Positions 10,423 through 17,491 of a DNA stretch of 29,045 bases are shown piece after piece. The stretch comes from a virus (lineage: Duplodnaviria > Heunggongvirae > Uroviricota > Caudoviricetes), in the IMG/VR virus record IMGVR_UViG_2778261464_000005. One strand, written 5' to 3'. The position numbers and the translations under genes are program-made. The first letter of the stretch is position 1. Every line of letters starts with the position of its first letter. The notes below the pieces were generated by a model. It had not been told where the DNA came from, did not search any database, and saw only the letters and a program-made list of their open reading frames with translations.

Positions 10423-10773
10423 TTGATGCGTGATATGTATGAAGTATTGGACCGCTGGGGAGCATGGGCTGCAGCAGAAAATAGTGGTGTGGACTGGCAG
10501 CCGATAGCGGCTGGTTTCAAGGGACTTTTACCACACGGTAAAAAGTCACGTCTCCAGTGTGATGATGATGAAGGCATCATGATAGATAGTTGTGTGGCTA
10601 GGTTGCGTAAATATAAGCCGGAAGAGTATGAGCTGATAATTGCTCACTTTGTTATCGGTATCTCATTACGCACTATTGCGAAGAAGAGAAAATGCTCTGA
10701 TGGGACTATAAGAAAAAAGTTGCAAGCTGCATTGGGATTTATTGATGCAGTTATATATATAATACATGGGTAA
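10423..10773 (+). CDS. Q: Late-gene antiterminator Q
   Basis: 116 aa; VLDRWGAWAAAENSGVDWQPIAAGFKGLLPHGKKSRLQCDDDEGIMIDSCVARL...CSDGTIRKKL matches the phage antitermination protein Q family. Sits just before the late region. Confidence 0.8.
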   Translation: MMRDMYEVLDRWGAWAAAENSGVDWQPIAAGFKGLLPHGKKSRLQCDDDEGIMIDSCVARLRKYKPEEYELIIAHFVIGISLRTIAKKRKCSDGTIRKKLQAALGFIDAVIYIIHG

Positions 10774-10780
10774 TTTATTA

Positions 10781-10799
10781 GACGGCCATATTGGCCGTC
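10781..10799. terminator. Perfect hairpin (GACGGCCA-TAT-TGGCCGTC) between convergent Q and the minus-strand cassette; possible bidirectional terminator
   Basis: 8-bp perfect stem read directly; overlaps the stop codon of the 10798..11976 gene and lies 8 nt after the Q stop. No strong U-run on either side. Confidence 0.4.
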
Positions 10800-11976
10800 A
10801 GCTAAATAAATATGTAATAGCATAAGGCGTAAGTAAAAAGTAGAATCTAAATGTAAGATATAAGCCACATAAAACTATAATTCCTAATGAGGCAAAAACA
10901 ACTTTCTGAACAAGCAATCTTGTGGTTAAACTATCAAATGTATCCTTTATATCTTCGTAAATAGCCTTGAAGTTATATTCTGCTTGTTGTTTTTTATGAT
11001 TTAACTCATCATTTATTGCTGTTAAAGTTTGCCATTGATTAAATAGAACAAATAGAATCATAATAGTGAAGAACAATGCACCCAACACTACAGCTGTGTT
11101 TATTAATGCTTGACTATCCCAACCATTAGCCTGCTTCATTTGAGTCGCAACGATAATTGTTGCGACGGGGATACCTAATATCTGATTTTGTATGTCACTG
11201 AATACTTTATGTATTTTCCCCATCTCTTCTATTTTGGCTACTCGTAACTGATCCAGTATTTTCTCGTAAGAAAAACCAGAAACGAATACTTTGTATCCTT
11301 TTTGATAACTTTCATAAAGTTGTCCTAAATCCCTTAACATGAAGGAAAAAGAGGTTTCTTTAGTTTTAGATTCACATGATGATTTTATACTACTTGCTAA
11401 AATAGTAAGTTTTTGATCTTTATGCGTATCTTCTGCAAAGTTTGCGATCAAATTATGAATCAGATCTCCATTAACATTCATAAGATCATCGCTAGAATAA
11501 TTTACTGGAATTTTTAGTACGTTGGATTCGACGAATACCAATTCAAAATTTGTTTCATCTAAATAAGCAGAACAATCTTTGAATAAAGTAATTAAGCTCA
11601 AAACATCTCTGTACTTGGATATAATAGCAGGCGACTTTTTATCCCTGTTGTGATAATTAAGTTCGATTATAAAGAAGTTACTGGCTTCCTTTATCCTATT
11701 TTTAGGATTTTTTAAATACTCATTAAAAGAGAAATGTAGCTGCCCCAATCGTAATTTGGGGGGGGTTATATGTAAGGTTATAGTTTGGCCTAACTCAATG
11801 TTGCCAGATTCAAGGGTGATGCCAAAATCATGGGGATTCTCTGTGATATCGTTGATGATGTCACAGAGCTCCTCGTTTGAAAGAATGAGTGATGCTTCAG
11901 ATAGGGTACCTGCAAATGTAGCGGCCTTGTAAATAGTCACTAAGTCTTTGAAGGTTCTCTGATTGTTACTGCTCAT
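10798..11976 (-). CDS. Hypothetical protein with ~280-aa soluble N-terminal domain and two C-terminal transmembrane helices (candidate membrane effector)
   Basis: ATG 11976 preceded by AGGTGA; starts 7 nt after the upstream gene stop (operon). Hydrophobic helices ALINTAVVLGALFFTIMILFVLF and VVFASLGIIVLCGLYLTFRFYFLL. AT-rich, no recognisable enzymatic motif. Confidence 0.7.
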   Translation of the reverse strand: MSSNNQRTFKDLVTIYKAATFAGTLSEASLILSNEELCDIINDITENPHDFGITLESGNIELGQTITLHITPPKLRLGQLHFSFNEYLKNPKNRIKEASNFFIIELNYHNRDKKSPAIISKYRDVLSLITLFKDCSAYLDETNFELVFVESNVLKIPVNYSSDDLMNVNGDLIHNLIANFAEDTHKDQKLTILASSIKSSCESKTKETSFSFMLRDLGQLYESYQKGYKVFVSGFSYEKILDQLRVAKIEEMGKIHKVFSDIQNQILGIPVATIIVATQMKQANGWDSQALINTAVVLGALFFTIMILFVLFNQWQTLTAINDELNHKKQQAEYNFKAIYEDIKDTFDSLTTRLLVQKVVFASLGIIVLCGLYLTFRFYFLLTPYAITYLFS

Positions 11977-13000
11977 CCTCTTCACCTAATTCTGATAAAA
12001 TCTCTGATCTTAGCGTATCCGGAATCTCGGTAAGTATCAATTTATCGTTTTCTGAATCATAAAGAACGCTGCCATCATGCAAGGCCGCACGCTCGAATTT
12101 CAGAGACCAATGTTTGGACTTTCCTTTGAAACTAACAAGCCCACGTATAACGTTGCCATCAGGCACGAACCCATCAGAGAACTCCAGATCGTCATTGGTT
12201 AACTTTTCAACTAACAACTCAGGAGCAGTTGGCCATATCTCGTTTGCAAAAATTTGAGTGTCGAAAGTTTCACCAGAACGATTTAAATTTTTTAATTTTT
12301 CATGAGCCTTATTTAGGAACTCTTCACGTGCCTCTGGTTCAAAACCTCTTTCAGTAGCAAATTCTAAAAGTGCATTCCGTAATTTTGTTGTTTCTTGTTT
12401 GGCAATTAGAATATCGTTGCAACCTAAAAACTTTTTGAAATAACCTGCTACTGAATTTTGCCCCTTTAGAAAGCTAATATATCTCTCTTTGCCATTCTGG
12501 CGCCCAGTTAAGTCAATTCGTCCCGCTACTCGAAGTTTAGCAATGTCTAGATATTCACTTTCTTGAATTTCAAAATCGTGGACTGAAGAGCCAACTGCTG
12601 ATGTTAGGATTGCAACCATCAAATAATGATTTCCATTTACCTCATTATGGGCAATTATTACATAACCACCAGTAGACATTGATTCATCATCGGCTCTGGC
12701 TTTTAAATGATTGATCATTCGGATACTAGTATCATAAAAACTATGTGTTTTATTTACGAAATAATCATCAACGATATTACCCATAGGGTAACTATCGCGG
12801 TCATCTTCAAATTTCCCATATCCTTTACCTGCTCTCCCAGAGTACCTTTCAGTAAGTGCGTTAGAGAGGTCTTTTGATGCTTGCTGAACAGGTTTTTCTG
12901 AAGGACAAGGAATAATGGTGGCTAACCCCTGTTGTTCCTTGTTCATAATGTGAACAATAAACTTATGAGTGATATTAGTGGGGGTCGCTGATGCAGTCAT
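11966..13000 (-). CDS. Divergent NdpA/YejK-family (NA37) nucleoid-associated protein homologue
   Basis: 344 aa, about the size of YejK (~335 aa). Colinear blocks with E. coli YejK as I recall it: [20 protein letters not shown] vs [41 protein letters not shown] vs [40 protein letters not shown] vs [25 protein letters not shown]. AT-rich. Confidence 0.7.
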   Translation of the reverse strand: [344 protein letters not shown]

Positions 13001-13117
13001 AACAACATCCTTTTAATGGTTTTGAACAATTGGTGTTGATAATACTTCAAAAAATACTAATGCGTACGCAAAAAATACAGTACTCTGTTAAGAGTGGTTA
13101 CTTCGCCACACAGCTTA

Positions 13118-13146
13118 AACCCGCCGTCGAGCGGGTTTTGTCGTTT
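13118..13146 (+). terminator. Hairpin + U-tract upstream of the holin gene (tR'-like terminator/attenuator)
   Basis: AACCCGC-CGTCGA-GCGGGTT followed by TTGTCGTTTCT, read directly. By position this corresponds to the late-transcript terminator that Q-modified polymerase reads through; I could not identify PR' itself. Confidence 0.45.
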
Positions 13147-13290
13147 CTGGGCTTTGGTATTCGTTGGGCTTGGTCTATCTAGCTCTTATCCATTGGCTCG
13201 GCTTCTTTTACGTTTCCGCTTCTGATTTGCGGTTCGTGGTACTCCCTCAATTTGCACCTCTTGTATCGGCGAGGTGAGAGATAACTACAA

Positions 13291-13617
13291 ATGCCTCATA
13301 ACCCAAATACTTGGCTGGAGTTGGTCCAGAGCTGGTGGCGTGGAGACACACCGCTGGGCGCAGTGATTATGTCGATTGTTATGGCTGGTTTGCGCATTGC
13401 CTATTTTGGCGGTGGTGGTGGCTGGAAGCGAAAAACACTCGAAATTCTACTCTGTGGCGCTCTGACGCTGACTTTTGCATCCGCTCTTGAGTATGTCGGA
13501 TGGCCTAAATCGCTTTCTGTTGCCATTGGTGGTGGGGTGGGGCTGATCGGTGTCGATGCTATTCGTGGGGCTGCAATGAGAGTAATCGGTAATAAGTTTG
13601 GTGGCTCTAAGGAGTAA
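13291..13617 (+). CDS. Holin (three-TM, lambda S-like architecture)
   Basis: 108 aa with hydrophobic segments and a charged C-terminus, directly upstream of the endolysin. Confidence 0.8.
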   Translation: MPHNPNTWLELVQSWWRGDTPLGAVIMSIVMAGLRIAYFGGGGGWKRKTLEILLCGALTLTFASALEYVGWPKSLSVAIGGGVGLIGVDAIRGAAMRVIGNKFGGSKE

Positions 13618-13620
13618 TTT

Positions 13621-14097
13621 ATGCAGGTACTAAATTCCCAGCGTAAAGCTTTCCTCGATATGGTGGCATGGTCAGAAGGAACGGATAACGGGCGACAACC
13701 GACACGTAACCACGGTTATGATGTTATTGTTGGTGGTGAACTGTTCACTGATTACTCCGATCACCCTCGCAAACTTGTCACGCTAAACCCAAAACTCAAA
13801 TCAACAGCCGCCGGACGTTACCAGCTTCTTTCCCGTTGGTGGGATGCCTACCGTAAGCAGCTTGGCCTGAAAGACTTCTCTCCAAAAAGCCAGGACGCTG
13901 TGGCATTGCAGCAGATTAAGGAGCGTGGCGCTTTACCGATGATTGATCGCGGTGATATTCGTCAGGCTATCGACCGTTGCAGCAATATCTGGGCTTCACT
14001 GCCGGGCGCTGGTTATGGCCAGTTCGAGCATAAGGCTGACAGCCTGATTGCAAAATTCAAAGAGGCTGGCGGAACGGTCAGAGAGATTGAGGTATGA
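13621..14097 (+). CDS. R: Endolysin, lambda R-type lytic transglycosylase
   Basis: 158 aa, nearly identical along its length to lambda R as I recall it ([149 protein letters not shown]). Confidence 0.92.
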
Positions 14098-14531
14098 GCA
14101 GAGTCACCGCGATTATCTCCGCTCTGATTATCTGCATCATCGTCTGCCTGTCATGGGCTGTTAATCATTACCGTGATAACGCCATCGCCTACAAAGAGCA
14201 GCGCGATAAAGCCACATCCACAATCGCTGACATGCAGAAGCGTCAACGTGATGTAGCAGAACTTGACGCCAGATACACAAAGGAGCTTGCTGATGCTAAC
14301 GCGACTATCGAAAGTCTCCGTGCTGATGTTTCTGCTGGTCGTAAGCGCCTGCAAGTCGCCGCCACCTGTGCAAAGTCAACGACCGGAGCCAGCAGCATGG
14401 GCGATGGAGAAAGCCCAGGACTTACAGCAGATGCTGAACTCAATTATTACCGTCTCCGAAGTGGAATCGACAGGATAACCGCGCAGGTTAACTACCTGCA
14501 GGAATACATCAGGACGCAATGCCTTCGATGA
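14094..14531 (+). CDS. Rz: Rz i-spanin
   Basis: N-terminus [31 protein letters not shown] matches lambda Rz; overlaps the R stop; contains the embedded Rz1 frame. Confidence 0.85.
14293..14478 (+). CDS. Rz1: Rz1 o-spanin lipoprotein (embedded in Rz in another frame)
   Basis: Signal peptide with lipobox ([20 protein letters not shown]) followed by a proline-rich stretch ([16 protein letters not shown]). Start chosen at the internal Met of track ORF 14263..14478. Confidence 0.7.
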
Positions 14532-14720
14532 TAGCGATAATTTTACTCATCATCCTTCACATCTGGCTCTGTAGACAGGGTGGTGCTTACTTCTGGAGCG
14601 AATCCAGATTAAACATCTCATTGCTGATGCTTGATATTGAGCATCTGGCGCGCGGTAAGGGCTGTGTTGAGATAAGTGCCAGTTCATTACAAAGCTATAT
14701 CTAATGGAACCTGAAATAAT

Positions 14721-14738
14721 TTGTCATTGTCATGACAA
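14721..14738. promoter_or_regulatory. Palindromic operator-like site TTGTCA-TTGTCATGACAA upstream of the 14782 moron
   Basis: Perfect 12-bp palindrome TTGTCATGACAA (14727-14738) preceded by a direct repeat of the half-site, about 45 bp upstream of the start codon. Confidence 0.35.
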
Positions 14739-14781
14739 GAAAATTCATTAATGATGAGCTCTCATTATACGGGAGGTAGAT

Positions 14782-15030
14782 ATGGCATTTCGTTATTTTG
14801 AACTTACCGAAAATATTCCTTTTGAGGATGCAAGAGAGCTTCACGTACAGTTCAAACACCACTTAGAATATGTTGTAAAGGCATTATTTATGTTAGGAAC
14901 ACATGAAAAGCATTTAATTGTTGAAGGCCGGGATGACGAATCGATAACACAGATATTTGGTGGGCATGATGAAAAGTTTATGCATCTTTATCATATCGAT
15001 GAATATGAAAAACGTGAAGACTTAATCTAA
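14782..15030 (+). CDS. Small acidic His-rich hypothetical protein (moron)
   Basis: 82 aa, strong SD (GGGAGGTAGATATG), AT-rich, palindromic site upstream. Confidence 0.55.
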   Translation: MAFRYFELTENIPFEDARELHVQFKHHLEYVVKALFMLGTHEKHLIVEGRDDESITQIFGGHDEKFMHLYHIDEYEKREDLI

Positions 15031-15145
15031 CCTCCTACGACTGTTTTTATTGCCATCATAAAAGCCATTCCTTGCAGAGTGGCTTTGATAATGGATATCC
15101 CAACAAGCGGATAAGACAATAAATATACCCACCAGGGGATAAACA

Positions 15146-15391
15146 ATGTCTAAAATCACGGTTACACCTGCATAGCAGATCCGCTTAAACCTGCTGGCGA
15201 AACTGAACTATGACACCGCCGCTGCAGCAGACGCGATTAAGTTTGTTGGTGACGATCCGTTGAAGTATCAAATCTTTGTGAACCAGTTAAGCTGGGTAAT
15301 ATCTGAAAGCGGGCTGGTAGCCAGAACGACGAAAGCTATCAAAGAGTCGGAAGACACACTACTGTGGTTTGAAGCTGAATCTGGTTCATAA
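15146..15391 (+). pseudogene. Small gene interrupted by an in-frame amber (TAG) codon at codon 10
   Basis: ATG 15146 with AGGGGA upstream gives MSKITVTPA, then TAG at 15173-15175, then 71 further protein-like codons (QIRLNLLAKLNYDTAAAADAIKFVGDDPLKYQIFVNQLSWVISESGLVARTTKAIKESEDTLLWFEAESGS) to TAA 15389-15391. No ATG downstream of the TAG in that frame. Confidence 0.4.
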
Positions 15392-15439
15392 GTGAATGAA
15401 TGTGGTAATTTAATCCTCCGCAAAAAAAAGGGGATAAAA

Positions 15440-15661
15440 ATGCTAAAGAATGTCATAGCTATTTTACCGGGTGACGCGTTTGATCATGTTGTTGTCCAGG
15501 ACGACCTGGAGATTGTTACCTTCAGGGGTGACAAGGGCGGCGTGCTTACTATGCCTATCGAGGAGTACGAACTAGACGGGATAAGTTATAACGTCGCACG
15601 TTGTGACGGTATGGTCACTGACGAAAAAGTTGAGAAGGCTATCAGACACTTCACCAAGTAA
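15440..15661 (+). CDS. Small hypothetical protein
   Basis: Internal ATG 15440 of track ORF 15392..15661, preceded by AGGGGA; 73 aa; followed by an intrinsic terminator. Confidence 0.55.
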   Translation: MLKNVIAILPGDAFDHVVVQDDLEIVTFRGDKGGVLTMPIEEYELDGISYNVARCDGMVTDEKVEKAIRHFTK

Positions 15662-15678
15662 TAATCAGCTTCCGAACC

Positions 15679-15704
15679 AAGCCTCGCAATAGCGAGGCTT
15701 TTTA
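15679..15704 (+). terminator. Intrinsic terminator (AAGCCTCGC-AATA-GCGAGGCTT + T-run)
   Basis: Perfect 9-bp stem and T5 read directly, ~20 nt after the stop of the 15440 gene. Confidence 0.6.
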
Positions 15705-15715
15705 ACGACAGAGGT

Positions 15716-15910
15716 ATGACAGTGGTTCTTACAGCTAAGCAGTTTGAAGACCTTGCATCCTTCGCGAAGGAAGATAGCCAGCCTCAATACACCATCGCAA
15801 CCGGAATAATCCCAGAATTCGAAGATGATTGTGAGTTTATCCCCGTTTATGCCGGGCTCATCGCTTATTTAGAGTTACTGAATCACGGTGTATTGCAACT
15901 CGACCACTAG
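15716..15910 (+). CDS. Small acidic hypothetical protein
   Basis: 64 aa; start ambiguous (ATG 15716 sits right against the SD; GTG 15722 has better spacing). Confidence 0.45.
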   Translation: MTVVLTAKQFEDLASFAKEDSQPQYTIATGIIPEFEDDCEFIPVYAGLIAYLELLNHGVLQLDH

Positions 15911-15984
15911 CGACATTACGCCAAGTATTCATCAAGTGCCTAGTTTAATGTTAAATTATTCCCTCATTCATAAAAGGGAATGTT

Positions 15985-16386
15985 ATGAAAATAGATCACG
16001 AGTATTTGAAAGGTCTTTTGGAAGCTTTCGAGGCGTCTGAAGAGCCGCATACTGATATAAAGCAGCTGCAGCTGGCTGGGTATGACTACAGCACCGATGA
16101 ATTTTTATTCCATATGCGTTTATTGGCTGATCGTCAACTAATTGCTAGAACAGACGGCAAGTATGGGTTTGGTTTCTCTGAGGCTGCTGATGGAGGATCA
16201 TGGTTCGTTATACCGTTACGATTAACTTCAAGCGGTCATGACTTCCTTGAAGCTCTCAGGAATAAAGAGGTTTGGAATTCTCTCAAGACCGGCTTTAAAG
16301 ATGCAAGCATTGGAACATTAGTTGACGTTTCAAGGCGTTTGCTGGATGGTTATATTCAGAAAAAAATTGACGACTTAATTGGCTAA
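15985..16386 (+). CDS. Hypothetical protein (AT-rich moron, 133 aa)
   Basis: Clean ORF with its own terminator downstream; no motif recognised with confidence. Confidence 0.6.
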   Translation: MKIDHEYLKGLLEAFEASEEPHTDIKQLQLAGYDYSTDEFLFHMRLLADRQLIARTDGKYGFGFSEAADGGSWFVIPLRLTSSGHDFLEALRNKEVWNSLKTGFKDASIGTLVDVSRRLLDGYIQKKIDDLIG

Positions 16387-16403
16387 TATTTTATATAACC
16401 ATC

Positions 16404-16429
16404 AGCCCCGCAATCGCGGGGCTTTTTTA
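16404..16429 (+). terminator. Intrinsic terminator (AGCCCCGC-AAT-GCGGGGCT + T6)
   Basis: Perfect 8-bp GC-rich stem followed by TTTTTT, read directly. Confidence 0.65.
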
Positions 16430-16520
16430 TTGCCATTATGATGGCAGATATATTGCTATGGCGTAACAGGATTTCAACTATGAACCCAACAGAAGCAGCT
16501 ACATCACCGAAGGACGGATA

Positions 16521-16871
16521 ATGCCACCACGCACACCAAAAGCCTGCCGTGTTCGCGGGTGCCGCCATACCACCACTGACCCGTCAGGTTATTGCGAAAG
16601 CCACAAAAGCGAAGGCTGGAAGCAATACAAGCCAGGACAATCCCGTCATCAGCGCGGCTACGGTTCGAAGTGGGATGTTATCCGCGCGCGTGTGCTGAAG
16701 CGTGACAAAGGTTTATGTCAGTTATGTCTGCGTGCCGGTGTGGTGCGTGAGGCGAAAACCGTTGACCACATCATCCCTAAAGCGCATGGCGGCACTGATG
16801 CCGACAGCAATCTGCAGAGCCTGTGCTGGCCGTGTCATAAGGCGAAGACGGCCCGTGAACGGTTGAAGTAA
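16521..16871 (+). CDS. HNH endonuclease (packaging-associated, adjacent to terminase)
   Basis: 116 aa; Cys pairs plus HNH-type motif (TVDHIIPKAHGGTDADSNLQSLCWPCHKAKT); sits immediately upstream of the terminase small subunit, as in HK97-like packaging modules. Confidence 0.8.
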   Translation: MPPRTPKACRVRGCRHTTTDPSGYCESHKSEGWKQYKPGQSRHQRGYGSKWDVIRARVLKRDKGLCQLCLRAGVVREAKTVDHIIPKAHGGTDADSNLQSLCWPCHKAKTARERLK

Positions 16872-16897
16872 GAACCAGTTCCCACTGCCAGAGGGGA

Positions 16898-16957
16898 GGG
16901 GCGGGTCAAATCTCTGTGACCTGACGTCTTCCGGACTGCCCGCCCCATCGTTTTTTT
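16898..16957 (+). other. GC-rich inverted repeat (GGGGCGGG ... CCCGCCCC) followed by T7; candidate terminator and/or cos/packaging-site region
   Basis: 8-bp arms separated by ~33 nt, then TTTTTTT, read directly. Lies between the HNH and terminase small subunit genes, where cos sites sit in HK97-like phages. Confidence 0.3.
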
Positions 16958-16996
16958 ATACCCGCGAAAAATGAAATTTAAACAGGAGTGCCGCAT

Positions 16997-17491
16997 ATGG
17001 CTGGAACGGCGGGGCGTTCCGGGCGTCGCCCCAAGCCAACGGCGCGCAAGGCGCTGGCCGGAAACCCCGGCAAGCGAGCCCTGAACAAAGATGAACCTGT
17101 TTTTACGCCCATCAAAGGGGTTGAGCCACCGGAGTGGTTCGCAGAAGAAAATCTCCCTCTCGCTACGATCATGTGGCAACTGACAACCAAAGAACTCTGC
17201 GGTCAGGGCCTGCTGTGCGTGACTGACCTCGCGGTGCTTGAGCGGTGGTGCGTAGCCTATGAGTTCTGGCGACGTGCCGTGAAAAATATTGCCAGCCAGG
17301 GCAACACCATCACCGGTGCAATGGGCGGTATGGTCAAAAATCCGGAGCTGACCGCCAAGAAAGAACAGGAGTCCGAGATGAGCAGCACGGGGGCAATGCT
17401 CGGACTCGACCCCAGCAGCCGCCAGCGTCTGATTGGCCTGGCGGGGCAGAAGAAAGCCACTAACCCGTTTCTGAAAATTATCGAATCATGA
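16997..17491 (+). CDS. Terminase small subunit (P27 family)
   Basis: [34 protein letters not shown] is the characteristic P27-family N-terminus; AGGAG 8 nt upstream of ATG 16997; overlaps the large subunit start. Confidence 0.85.

Follow-up and report, generated by a model that had tools for sequence, protein, structure and literature searches.

The interval between Rz/Rz1 and the HNH endonuclease gene of this E. coli prophage is probably an accessory slot of a lambdoid late operon, located where the lysis genes give way to the packaging genes, and several cassettes acquired independently of one another are stacked in it. It amounts to an ordinary moron cluster whose families are uncharacterised, of a sort well known from lambda-like phages, and no new kind of system. 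In the window (the whole 29,045-nt stretch of viral DNA analysed, IMG/VR record IMGVR_UViG_2778261464_000005) the stack consists of (i) a 61-aa membrane ORF and the 82-aa gene, (ii) a DUF2560 pseudogene, the 73-aa gene and a terminator, (iii) the 64-aa gene, which directly follows a terminator, and (iv) the DUF2513 gene with a -10-like site, a leader hairpin pairing the Shine-Dalgarno (SD) sequence, and a terminator (Table 1). The first-pass annotation had already described the region as accessory ('moron'-type) cargo, a description upheld by the swappable modules, the distinct base composition, the conserved terminators and two conserved promoter-like sites.

Table 1. Features of the lysis-to-packaging region and its surroundings (window coordinates)
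Feature	Position (nt)	Strand	Remarks
Q antiterminator gene	10,423–10,773		
tR'	13,117–13,138		
Rz	14,094–14,531		Embedded Rz1
61-aa ORF	14,519–14,704	+	N-terminal hydrophobic helix; overlaps Rz stop codon
Promoter-like site, 82-aa gene	14,727–14,755	+	TTGTCA (14,727–14,732), 17-nt spacer, AATGAT (14,750–14,755)
82-aa gene	14,782–15,030	+	Acidic, His-rich product, pI 5.2
Decayed terminator of 82-aa cassette	15,031–15,054	+	CCTCCTACGACTGTTTTTATTGCC; compared with downstream regions of relatives
Hairpin, inter-cassette linker variant	15,061–15,092	+	AAAGCCATTC / GAGTGGCTTT, then GATAAT
DUF2560 pseudogene	15,146–15,391	+	81 codons; Gln10 CAG to TAG at 15,173–15,175
73-aa gene	15,440–15,661	+	Acidic, pI 4.6; narrow Enterobacteriaceae family
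Intrinsic terminator	15,679–15,704	+	3' end of 73-aa cassette and 5' flank of 64-aa gene; two-module junction
64-aa gene	15,716–15,910	+	Very acidic, pI 4.05
DUF2513 control region	15,949–15,981	+	Extended -10-like TGTTAAATT (15,949–15,957); leader hairpin (15,958–15,981)
DUF2513 gene	15,985–16,386	+	133 aa, pI 5.1; predicted winged-helix domain and three C-terminal helices
Intrinsic terminator of DUF2513 cassette	16,404–16,429	+	
HNH endonuclease	16,521–16,871		

Organisation and composition of the region

Q, holin, lysozyme, Rz, HNH and TerS were identified, the gene order being read from ORFs and profile matches, and the prophage modules for replication, lysis, packaging, head and tail are complete. 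All five small ORFs reported earlier between Rz/Rz1 and HNH (82, 81 with an amber codon, 73, 64 and 133 aa) were found on the plus strand, and the cluster is followed by HNH, a P27-family TerS, TerL and portal genes. At nt 14,700–16,430 the GC content is 41.5%, which confirms the reported AT-richness; the lysis genes stand at 51.3% and HNH-TerL at 55.5%. An SD sequence is present at every intact ORF. The cluster proteins are acidic (pI 4.05–5.2), and no obvious signal peptide, lipobox or membrane segment was seen in the five translations, as judged by eye. A sixth ORF, absent from the earlier list, lies just 5' of the cluster and encodes the 61-aa transmembrane protein (phrog_11822, E = 2e-34). 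Its counterparts in phage records are annotated as Sf6 gene 65 or epsilon34 gene 67, it travels with the P22/Sf6-type lysis cassette, and the stretch is matched in about 1,950 E. coli genomes.

Mosaic distribution of the cassettes

The cassettes were compared across about 120 related loci, and their rarity was counted over 5,426 E. coli genomes. The whole cluster is carried by six of these genomes, the 82-aa module by 10 (with a further six showing the linker only), DUF2560 plus the 73-aa gene by six, and the 64-aa gene plus DUF2513 by 10, the cluster modules being missing from more than 5,400. Each module also occurs alone in the lysis-to-packaging slot of other prophages whose lysis and terminase genes are unrelated. 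Strain BS15R-A, for example, carries the right module alone, with 64-aa/DUF2513 directly after Rz1, while the P22-like S1 prophage has only the left 61-aa/82-aa module, placed before a different terminase. An S1 peptidase is found in place of the 82-aa gene with the flanks unchanged, and most prophages that share HNH-TerS-TerL are without DUF2513. The module joints coincide with terminators or with shared linker sequence, and the terminators and a linker of about 45 nt appear to be the joints of cassette exchange. In some relatives the slot is occupied by sponge genes of the Acb2/Tad1 type (Acb2_Tad1_hairpin).

The 82-aa cassette

A perfect 12-bp palindrome before the first gene had been put forward as a regulatory signal. 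It exists (TTGTCATGACAA, nt 14,727–14,738) as a single copy in the window, but a role as operator was rejected because such palindromes occur at chance frequency (six in the window, 7.1 expected), it is not conserved, and it gives no RNA structure signal (folding no better than shuffled sequence, z = -0.3). It is confined to the window's own lineage, and diverged 82-aa homologues have TTGCCATGCTAC, TTGCCACCACCT, TTGCCGTGTTAC and similar sequences at that place. The conserved part is the TTGTCA half only, a -35-like element, and TTGTCATGACAA is the -35 half of the promoter-like site of the 82-aa gene plus lineage-specific bases. That site has nine of 12 matches and a PWM score of 8.8, which is not above shuffles; the pattern TTGyCA-N17-(rATGAT/GAATAT) is retained in seven diverged upstream variants of the gene, whereas the palindrome is not.

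The 82-aa protein is predicted to adopt a ferredoxin-like alpha+beta fold, and was compared with Cas2/GhoS-like ferredoxin-fold RNases for fold similarity and catalytic residues. The family is limited to Enterobacterales and in the inspected loci always occupies the lysis-to-packaging slot. When diverged homologues are compared, dN/dS is 0.07–0.16 for the 82-aa and 73-aa genes, indicating purifying selection. Directly downstream, relatives carry CCGCC-TCAG-GGCGG-TTTTTTT at the position where the window has the decayed terminator. The linker variant that follows resembles the linker preceding DUF2560 and DUF2513 genes elsewhere; the sequence around it (nt 15,035–15,110) folds with dG = -22.9 (z = -3.8), and the fragment at nt 15,044–15,114 is matched in six further E. 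coli genomes without the 82-aa gene.

The DUF2560 pseudogene and the 73-aa gene

Read from its sequence, the window's DUF2560 gene is a pseudogene of the PF10834 family with the frame broken at codon 10. When repaired, it matches PF10834 (E = 2.5e-14, 53.7 bits against a cut-off of 25) and phrog_571 (E = 1.7e-23), and an intact 81-aa homologue has Q at the amber position. The amber codon is also present in near-identical genomes, and a Citrobacter/E. coli lineage carries a separate frameshift and stop. Independent decay of DUF2560 in two prophage lineages, with the neighbouring gene left intact, fits a function that is dispensable for the lysogen.

That neighbour, the 73-aa gene, stood directly 3' of a DUF2560 gene or its remnant in the loci inspected, which include three packaging types and always place it in the lysis-to-packaging slot. 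Its family comprises 12 clusters with 77–99% identity, and dN/dS for the gene is 0.10–0.15. The protein has no PHROG, and tblastn against phage records gave no match.

The terminators and the 64-aa gene

The stem of the first terminator (nt 15,679–15,700) has 9 bp (dG = -16 kcal/mol, z = -5.6), and that of the second (nt 16,404–16,423) has 8 bp, seven of them G-C pairs (dG = -17.2, z = -4.1); each is followed by a T-run. Both terminators are kept in homologous loci with compensating stem changes. Known RNA families gave only sub-threshold, terminator-driven matches at nt 12,900–17,100. The first terminator is kept after 73-aa homologues, and directly before 64-aa homologues in five upstream contexts; homology with the 64-aa/DUF2513 prophages begins within its stem. 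The two strong terminators noted at first pass are thus real, but their proposed role in insulating the cluster is only half right, as the one at 15,679 lies inside it. Both also need to be read through if the packaging genes 3' of them are to be expressed.

The 64-aa gene begins 12–15 nt past the terminator in all five upstream contexts seen. This position directly behind a terminator leaves no room for a promoter and implies dependence on read-through, so that the gene is probably expressed late only, as far as its layout tells. The protein belongs to phrog_9518 (E = 3e-34), and its family comes to about 18 representative clusters judged genuine, N-terminal extensions being present in some. 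Matches to the long repeat proteins P0145 and P0160 were set aside as repeat or low-complexity artefacts on reading the sequences.

The DUF2513 cassette

The 133-aa protein matches DUF2513 (PF10711) over residues 2–108 with 50.8 bits (gathering cut-off 29.6), and also PHROG 585. Its modelled fold is of the winged-helix type. In the control region, the leader hairpin ATTCCCT...AGGGAAT pairs the SD sequence. The extended -10-like motif TGnTAAATT, unique in the window, is found 23–29 nt before the start with at most one mismatch in 27 of 48 non-redundant homologous loci, as against 25 of 960 shuffles. The SD sequence is paired in 24 of 26 parsable DUF2513 leaders (from 30 sequences) although the stem sequences differ, a count obtained by per-sequence folding in place of alignment folding; RNAalifold on a MAFFT alignment of the leaders gave no consensus structure, the stems being out of register. 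Of 51 non-redundant contexts, at least 41 have a terminator after DUF2513, again with differing stem sequences.

Of 80 viral loci, 53 have DUF2513 flanked by lysis genes on one side and packaging genes on the other; in 18 more one side is recognised, and no recognised gene separates it from the packaging genes in most of the viral loci surveyed. The adjoining terminases are of several types (at least four by Pfam family), and the upstream partners include DUF2560 (about 17 loci), the 64-aa gene (about 11) and Acb2-like genes (about five). DUF2513 is also found in other settings: close to int/xis (phage Chlobot), behind a Type ISP restriction enzyme (Thiothrix) and within an island of Aeromonas. 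Homologues of DUF2513 and of the 64-aa protein are conserved across wide taxonomic distances.

Many DUF2513 genes are preceded by the inverted repeat ACAGGCA-N9-TGCCTGT (7-bp arms, centred near -32). The same linker is also found in loci without DUF2513, where it stands ahead of DUF2560, DUF6979 and other genes; phi80 has it after rha. The window copy is degenerate, with 10 mismatches in 30 positions when aligned by hand and no copy within seven mismatches, and the linker was not found in the Rz-cos region of lambda. The linker was also considered as a LexA or CRP site and dismissed by eye, the half-site orientation being wrong.

The putative recognition helix (residues 38–49, DEFLFHMRLLAD) and the predicted wing are not basic. 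These features and an acidic pI of 5.1 are unusual in a DNA-binding regulator and a point against such a role for DUF2513. MarR/PadR regulators share the modelled winged-helix fold with DUF2513 but differ from it in several respects: no Pfam match to them was obtained at E up to 1 and no profile match in the PDB, DUF2513 has a different C-terminal extension of three helices, and its surface is acidic. The protein may, with low certainty, be a winged-helix protein that binds nucleic acid or a ligand.

Searches for function and promoters

Homology searches for each small protein, proposed as a check on the first-pass annotation, yielded families (except that the 73-aa protein lacks a PHROG) but not functions: Pfam, NCBIfam and PADLOC gave no functional match, and the PHROGs matched were families of unknown function only. 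The NCBIfam and PADLOC models returned nothing for six proteins, and a PDB sequence search with four proteins and two profiles returned nothing meaningful. Virulence-related families were not matched by the small proteins in Pfam or NCBIfam, nor was Acb2/Tad1 (PF24729 or related) matched by any window protein in Pfam. Any pointer to a virulence, anti-defence or lysogenic-conversion role is limited to the Acb2/Tad1-type sponge genes that occupy this slot in some relatives. For DUF2513, DUF2560, PF10711 and PF10834 there is essentially no functional literature.

The cluster had also been credited with its own regulatory signals and with expression independent of the late operon. Promoter-like sites are indeed conserved for the 82-aa and DUF2513 cassettes, a comparative support that is inflated by shared ancestry, but by score alone none of the region's sigma-70 sites exceeds shuffled sequence. 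Independent expression does not extend to every gene, as the 64-aa gene has no promoter room and DUF2560 is a pseudogene. The late promoter was not located with confidence.

Interpretation

During lytic growth, Q-modified RNA polymerase would start at the late promoter and read through tR' and both cassette terminators, so that all cassette genes would be expressed en route to HNH and terminase; that Q allows polymerase to pass downstream terminators is well established for lambda. Unmodified polymerase, in the lysogen, would be halted at the terminators. Low-level products would then come only from the cassettes with their own promoter-like site (82-aa and DUF2513), and the 64-aa gene would be silent. 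The terminators would also form a layered block that keeps stray transcription from the packaging genes. What the small, acidic, cytoplasmic products do is a matter of conjecture; they might benefit the phage by binding host or competitor macromolecules late in infection, for instance to modulate the host or counteract defence. The conserved slot could instead reflect tolerance of insertions, with no shared function.

The genes might be classical lysogenic-conversion morons, transcribed from promoters of their own while the prophage is uninduced, to the host's benefit through virulence, phage exclusion or stress tolerance, but this is unlikely. The conserved succession of promoter-like site, gene and terminator in two cassettes fits such a role, as do the low GC content, the precedent of bor (by annotation) in the same slot of lambda, and the terminators, which would confine such transcripts. 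The 64-aa gene, however, cannot carry its own promoter, mutations have inactivated DUF2560 in two prophage lineages, and the five proteins lack any obvious signal peptide, lipobox or membrane segment, unlike bor, lom and sie-type proteins. PADLOC and virulence-family matches are absent, and the modules are rare (6–16 of 5,426 genomes).

DUF2513 could also be an Aca-like autoregulator closing small anti-defence operons, with the upstream acidic genes (64-aa, DUF2560, 73-aa and, in relatives, Acb2-like) as inhibitors and the inverted repeat ahead of the -10-like site as operator, and this we find hard to credit. Its predicted winged-helix fold, its usual place as last recognised gene before the packaging genes, mostly followed by a terminator, and its variable upstream partners (DUF2560, 64-aa, Acb2-like) would suit such a regulator, and the repeat lies before many DUF2513 genes. 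Yet that linker also occurs in loci without DUF2513 and is degenerate in the window, the protein is acidic without a basic recognition helix, the gene has its own -10-like site rather than co-transcription from an upstream operon promoter, and a terminator separates the 73-aa and 64-aa genes.

A related and rather improbable reading is that the DUF2513 cassette (defined here by the inverted-repeat linker, TGnTAAATT promoter, SD-masking leader, acidic winged-helix protein and terminator) serves in lambda-like phages as a conserved marker of counter-defence loci, with the stacked acidic genes as new immunity inhibitors. If so, DUF2513 would be a regulator or itself an inhibitor, the 64-aa, 73-aa, DUF2560, 82-aa and Acb2-like proteins would be inhibitors of bacterial immunity, and the shared terminators and linker would be recombination joints that shuffle the inhibitor genes.

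It is very unlikely that the genes, especially DUF2513 beside HNH/TerS, are auxiliary lysis or packaging parts such as a cos/pac-recognition helper. One DUF2513 subfamily lies upstream of several unrelated terminase types, the gene also occurs in the Chlobot, Thiothrix and Aeromonas island contexts, it is missing from most prophages that have the same HNH-TerS-TerL, and a terminator stands between it and HNH; these points outweigh its position immediately 5' of the packaging genes in most loci, its modelled nucleic-acid-binding type of fold, and the HK97-type genome end, which adjoins the HNH gene (PMC3592412). Equally little credence is given to decaying junk, with ORFs surviving by chance in a cryptic prophage, since the amber codon, the decayed 82-aa terminator and the degenerate linker copies are set against low dN/dS in the 82-aa and 73-aa genes, wide conservation of DUF2513 and 64-aa homologues, SD sequences at all intact ORFs and complete prophage modules.

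Comparison with known systems

The moron is a concept of Hendrix and Juhala, with examples in lambda bor, between Rz and cos, and the P22 'ant moron'. The cluster agrees with lambdoid morons in consisting of extra genes between late modules that are adjacent in related phages, in its lower GC content, 3' terminators and 5' promoter-like sites (two cassettes), and in content that varies among similar phages (for the definition, see PMC2629481). It differs in that the 64-aa gene lacks a promoter and comes straight after a terminator, and in products that are soluble and acidic, not envelope proteins like Bor or Lom. With anti-defence clusters (acr-aca, Acb2/Tad1) it shares small, acidic, fast-turning-over genes at a fixed slot, Acb2_Tad1_hairpin genes in the slot of relatives and an HTH-type protein at the 3' end, but no window protein matches a known anti-defence family. 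The DUF2513 protein matches its family model (PF10711, PHROG 585) full length and above threshold, and the predicted winged-helix fold and conserved cassette architecture go beyond the available family description.

As an accessory slot, the region is a well-documented case of lambda-like phages stacking and swapping passenger genes at the lysis-packaging junction, with little that is new in kind. The 82-aa, 73-aa, 64-aa and DUF2513 families can now be assigned to one fixed slot that is transcribed late, and as this slot hosts known anti-defence sponges in relatives, the four are reasonable candidates for counter-defence or host-modulation screens. The widespread DUF2513 can be described as a predicted winged-helix protein whose expression cassette is conserved and self-contained.

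In the HK97-type packaging module, a gp74-like HNH endonuclease lies next to cos. The window shares with that module the HNH, P27-family TerS, TerL and portal genes directly 3' of the cluster, but the cluster is not part of the module, and the same cassettes are found beside other terminase types.

Prophage setting and gene content

A near-identical copy of this lambda-like E. coli prophage (97.5-98.6% identity across most of the window) is found in E. coli strain 20, where the annotated genes specify a LexA-type repressor, replication proteins, a Q antiterminator, a lambda-type holin, a GH24 lysozyme and Rz, followed by an HNH endonuclease, P27-family small terminase, large terminase, portal, HK97-type protease, capsid and a sheathed tail. 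Between Rz/Rz1 and the HNH gene the first-pass annotation had described a cluster of small, AT-rich morons, and this picture is right in outline: the cluster is a textbook example of morons as the term is used for bor of lambda and the ant moron of P22 (PMC2629481), and the families that fill it are uncharacterised. All five reported ORFs are present and a sixth, of 61 aa, precedes them. A Shine-Dalgarno sequence precedes every intact ORF, and the GC content is indeed low (41.5% for nt 14700-16430 vs 51.3% for the lysis genes and 55.5% for HNH-TerL). The 61-aa ORF corresponds to Sf6 gene 65 and epsilon34 gene 67, its stretch of DNA has matches in about 1,950 of 5,426 E. coli genomes, and the P22-type lysis cassette may have in it an accessory not recognised so far. 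Further right, in the HNH-TerS gap (nt 16872-16987), a GC-rich long-range inverted repeat (GGGGCGGG ... CCCGCCCC) precedes a T7 run; the gap is a candidate region for cos or a terminator of the HK97-type packaging module.

Features of the lysis-to-packaging region, and of a linker found in loci used for comparison (L numbers)
Feature	Position	Remarks
Q antiterminator	10423-10773	PF06530, E 1e-44
Holin	13291-13617	
Lysozyme	13621-14097	
Rz	14094-14531	embedded lipoprotein frame = Rz1
61-aa ORF	14519-14704	hydrophobic N-terminus; ATGA overlap with Rz stop codon
82-aa ORF	14782-15030	
81-codon ORF (DUF2560)	15146-15391	in-frame TAG at 15173-15175
73-aa ORF	15440-15661	
64-aa ORF	15716-15910	
133-aa ORF (DUF2513, PF10711)	15985-16386	
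HNH endonuclease	16521-16871	
TerS	16988-17491	
~45-nt linker, related loci	L027-L106, L008-L015, phi80 L123:2001-2040	

The 82-aa and 73-aa genes have dN/dS values of 0.07-0.16, measured against homologues whose synonymous sites are saturated or nearly so. Homologues of DUF2513 form 129 clusters, spread across and beyond Gammaproteobacteria, and share 15 invariant residues; for the 64-aa protein there are about 18 representative clusters judged genuine. The 81-codon frame belongs to DUF2560 (PF10834, E 2.5e-14 once the sequence is repaired), and since the TAG at codon 10 replaces the CAG (Gln) of an intact 81-aa homologue, it is a recent pseudogene. The amber codon is common to near-identical genomes. 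In a Citrobacter/E. coli lineage a frameshift plus a stop codon have disrupted the gene independently, next to an intact 73-aa gene. In E. coli 2c3 the DUF2560 stop is lost (TAA to TAC, at the equivalent of nt 15389-15391) and the truncated frame continues, in the same reading frame, into the 73-aa frame; RefSeq labels the 141-aa fusion a 'DUF2560 family protein'.

A mosaic of mobile cassettes

The entire 2-kb cluster occurs in only six of 5,426 complete E. coli genomes, and its parts are found separately in the same set: the 82-aa module in 10 genomes (the linker downstream of it alone in 6 more), DUF2560 with the 73-aa gene in 6, and the 64-aa gene with DUF2513 in 10. In strain BS15R-A, Rz1 is followed directly by the 64-aa and DUF2513 genes and then by the same HNH-terminase genes as in the window, while a P22-like prophage of strain S1 has the 61-aa and 82-aa genes after Rz and a different terminase. 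Strain CFSAN061770 carries an S1-family peptidase in place of the 82-aa gene, with unchanged flanks and an intact DUF2560 next to it. A spanin and a terminase invariably flank the 82-aa family (11 clusters, Enterobacterales), and the terminases are of at least four types. At the loci inspected, members of the 73-aa family (12 clusters, all from Enterobacteriaceae) come immediately 3' of DUF2560, be it a gene or a remnant, and the packaging genes downstream are of the Nu1/gpA, HNH+Terminase_4 or HNH+Terminase_2 type. Of 80 viral contigs that carry DUF2513, lysis genes could be recognised upstream and packaging genes downstream in 53, and one side only in 18 more, with several different large-terminase types. 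DUF2513 is not tied to packaging: phage Chlobot has it close to int/xis, another copy lies in an Aeromonas island, and in Thiothrix nivea (L022:773-4408) it is 31 nt downstream of the gene for a Type ISP/MmeI-like restriction-modification enzyme (1,065 aa), with flanking transposases, a non-phage, defence-island-like context.

The joints between modules fall at regulatory hairpins; homology with the 64-aa/DUF2513 prophages starts within the stem of the terminator at nt 15679.

Terminators, promoter-like sites and leaders

The two strong terminators reported earlier were borne out as stable hairpins at nt 15679-15700 (dG -16 kcal/mol, z -5.6) and 16404-16423 (dG -17.2, z -4.1), each followed by a T-run. 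The former, 3' of the 73-aa gene, is retained with G-U and paired changes in all homologous loci, and also lies directly 5' of the 64-aa gene in five distinct upstream settings. A terminator comes after DUF2513 in at least 41 of the 51 non-redundant contexts, the stem sequences being many and different. Most relatives have a strong terminator 3' of the 82-aa gene, the right arm of which has decayed in the window lineage (CCTCCTACGACTGTTTTT vs CCGCCTCAGGGCGGTTTTTT). The T-runs of successive cassette terminators extend into an identical motif, TTTTTATTGCCAT (nt 15044-15056 and 16424-16436), and tails resembling TTTTTTATTG(C/T)C follow terminators in many related loci; these motifs are possibly shared recombination joints.

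The 12-bp palindrome TTGTCATGACAA, proposed as a regulatory signal, is present at nt 14727-14738 but does not exceed chance, as six perfect 12-bp palindromes were observed in the window vs 7.1 expected. Upstream of the 82-aa gene, TTGyCA-N17-(A/G)ATGAT or GAATAT is conserved in seven diverged variants while the palindrome-forming bases are not, so that the palindrome consists of a -35-like hexamer and bases specific to the lineage. In front of DUF2513, an extended -10-like motif, TGnTAAATT, occurs 23-29 nt from the start codon in 27 of 48 non-redundant loci when no more than one mismatch is allowed (25 of 960 shuffles); the window copy, TGTTAAATT (nt 15949-15957), is unique in the window. No site in the cluster region exceeds shuffled sequence in promoter score, and the two promoter-like sites stand out by conservation instead. 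The proposal that the cluster is expressed independently was too general: the 82-aa and DUF2513 genes may have promoters of their own, but the 64-aa gene has no room for one because it starts 12-15 nt behind a terminator T-run.

Directly after TGnTAAATT comes a leader hairpin (nt 15958-15981 in the window), which pairs the Shine-Dalgarno sequence in 24 of 26 parsable DUF2513 leaders (from 30 sequences; mean z about -2.2). Its stems vary by locus (AUUCCCU/AGGGAAU, UUCCCC/GGGGAA, AACCCCUUU/GGAGGGGUU and others). The hairpin suggests translational damping or 5'-end stabilisation. In related loci an unannotated linker of about 45 nt (GGCATTACAGCAGGCATTCACTGAGTGCCTGTGATAATGC...), with an internal 7-bp inverted repeat, precedes DUF2513 (35 cases), DUF2560 (10), DUF6979 (6) and other small genes, several of them mutually unrelated accessory genes of the lysis-to-packaging slot; shuffled sequences gave zero matches. 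It occurs in 47 phage records, including mEp390, phiP27, ST64B and phi80, where it is immediately 3' of rha, and was not found in the lambda Rz-cos region. All copies in the window (at about nt 15061-15092 and 15915-15948) are degenerate or variant. The linker could serve as an operator, form an RNA hairpin or act as a joint for recombination.

Proteins and possible function

All five cluster proteins are acidic (pI 4.05-5.2), the 61-aa ORF product being near-neutral (pI 6.7). Homology searches suggested at the outset gave no match for the cluster proteins in the PADLOC, NCBIfam or PDB sequence searches run, and no account of DUF2513 or DUF2560 was found in the literature. DUF2513 is confidently modelled (pLDDT 96.4) as a winged-helix domain with three C-terminal helices. 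Pfam and PDB profile searches gave no link to winged-helix regulators of the MarR/PadR type, and the putative recognition helix is not basic.

In lambda, Q-modified polymerase from the late promoter reads through terminators. Upon induction, such a polymerase would ignore tR' (candidate, nt 13117-13138) and both cassette terminators, and the cluster would be transcribed as part of the late operon, en route to the HNH and terminase genes, which the phage needs. Unmodified polymerase in the lysogen would halt at these terminators; only the 82-aa and DUF2513 cassettes would be expressible, weakly, from their own sites, DUF2513 translation being damped by its leader hairpin, and the 64-aa gene would be off. 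Beyond the architecture, mobility, signal conservation and selection on the proteins, which these comparisons establish, we conjecture that the products bind host or rival components and serve the phage late in infection, because the proteins are small, acidic and quickly turned over between phages, DUF2560 decays in prophages, and Acb2/Tad1-type sponge genes occupy the slot in relatives. A gene of the Acb2_Tad1_hairpin family, a known anti-CBASS/anti-Thoeris sponge family, lies in the same post-lysis position in one related locus (L015:4042-4335) and several IMG/VR loci, and is the recognised gene directly upstream of DUF2513 in about five viral loci. The most useful by-products are the anatomy of the DUF2513 cassette and a shortlist of candidates for late accessory proteins.

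Of greater interest than the moron cluster is a pair of overlapping minus-strand genes (nt 10798-11985 and 11966-13000; 35.6% GC) inserted between Q and holin. One specifies a YejK-like nucleoid-associated protein (NAP; PF04245, E 8e-69), and the pair gave sub-threshold matches to both components of the NCBIfam 'DS1' anti-phage pair (E 2.8e-15 and 1.6e-19). NAP-plus-effector operons of this type ('PANGU') are described as abortive-infection systems in a 2026 preprint, and the nt 10798-13000 pair is probably a prophage-borne variant.
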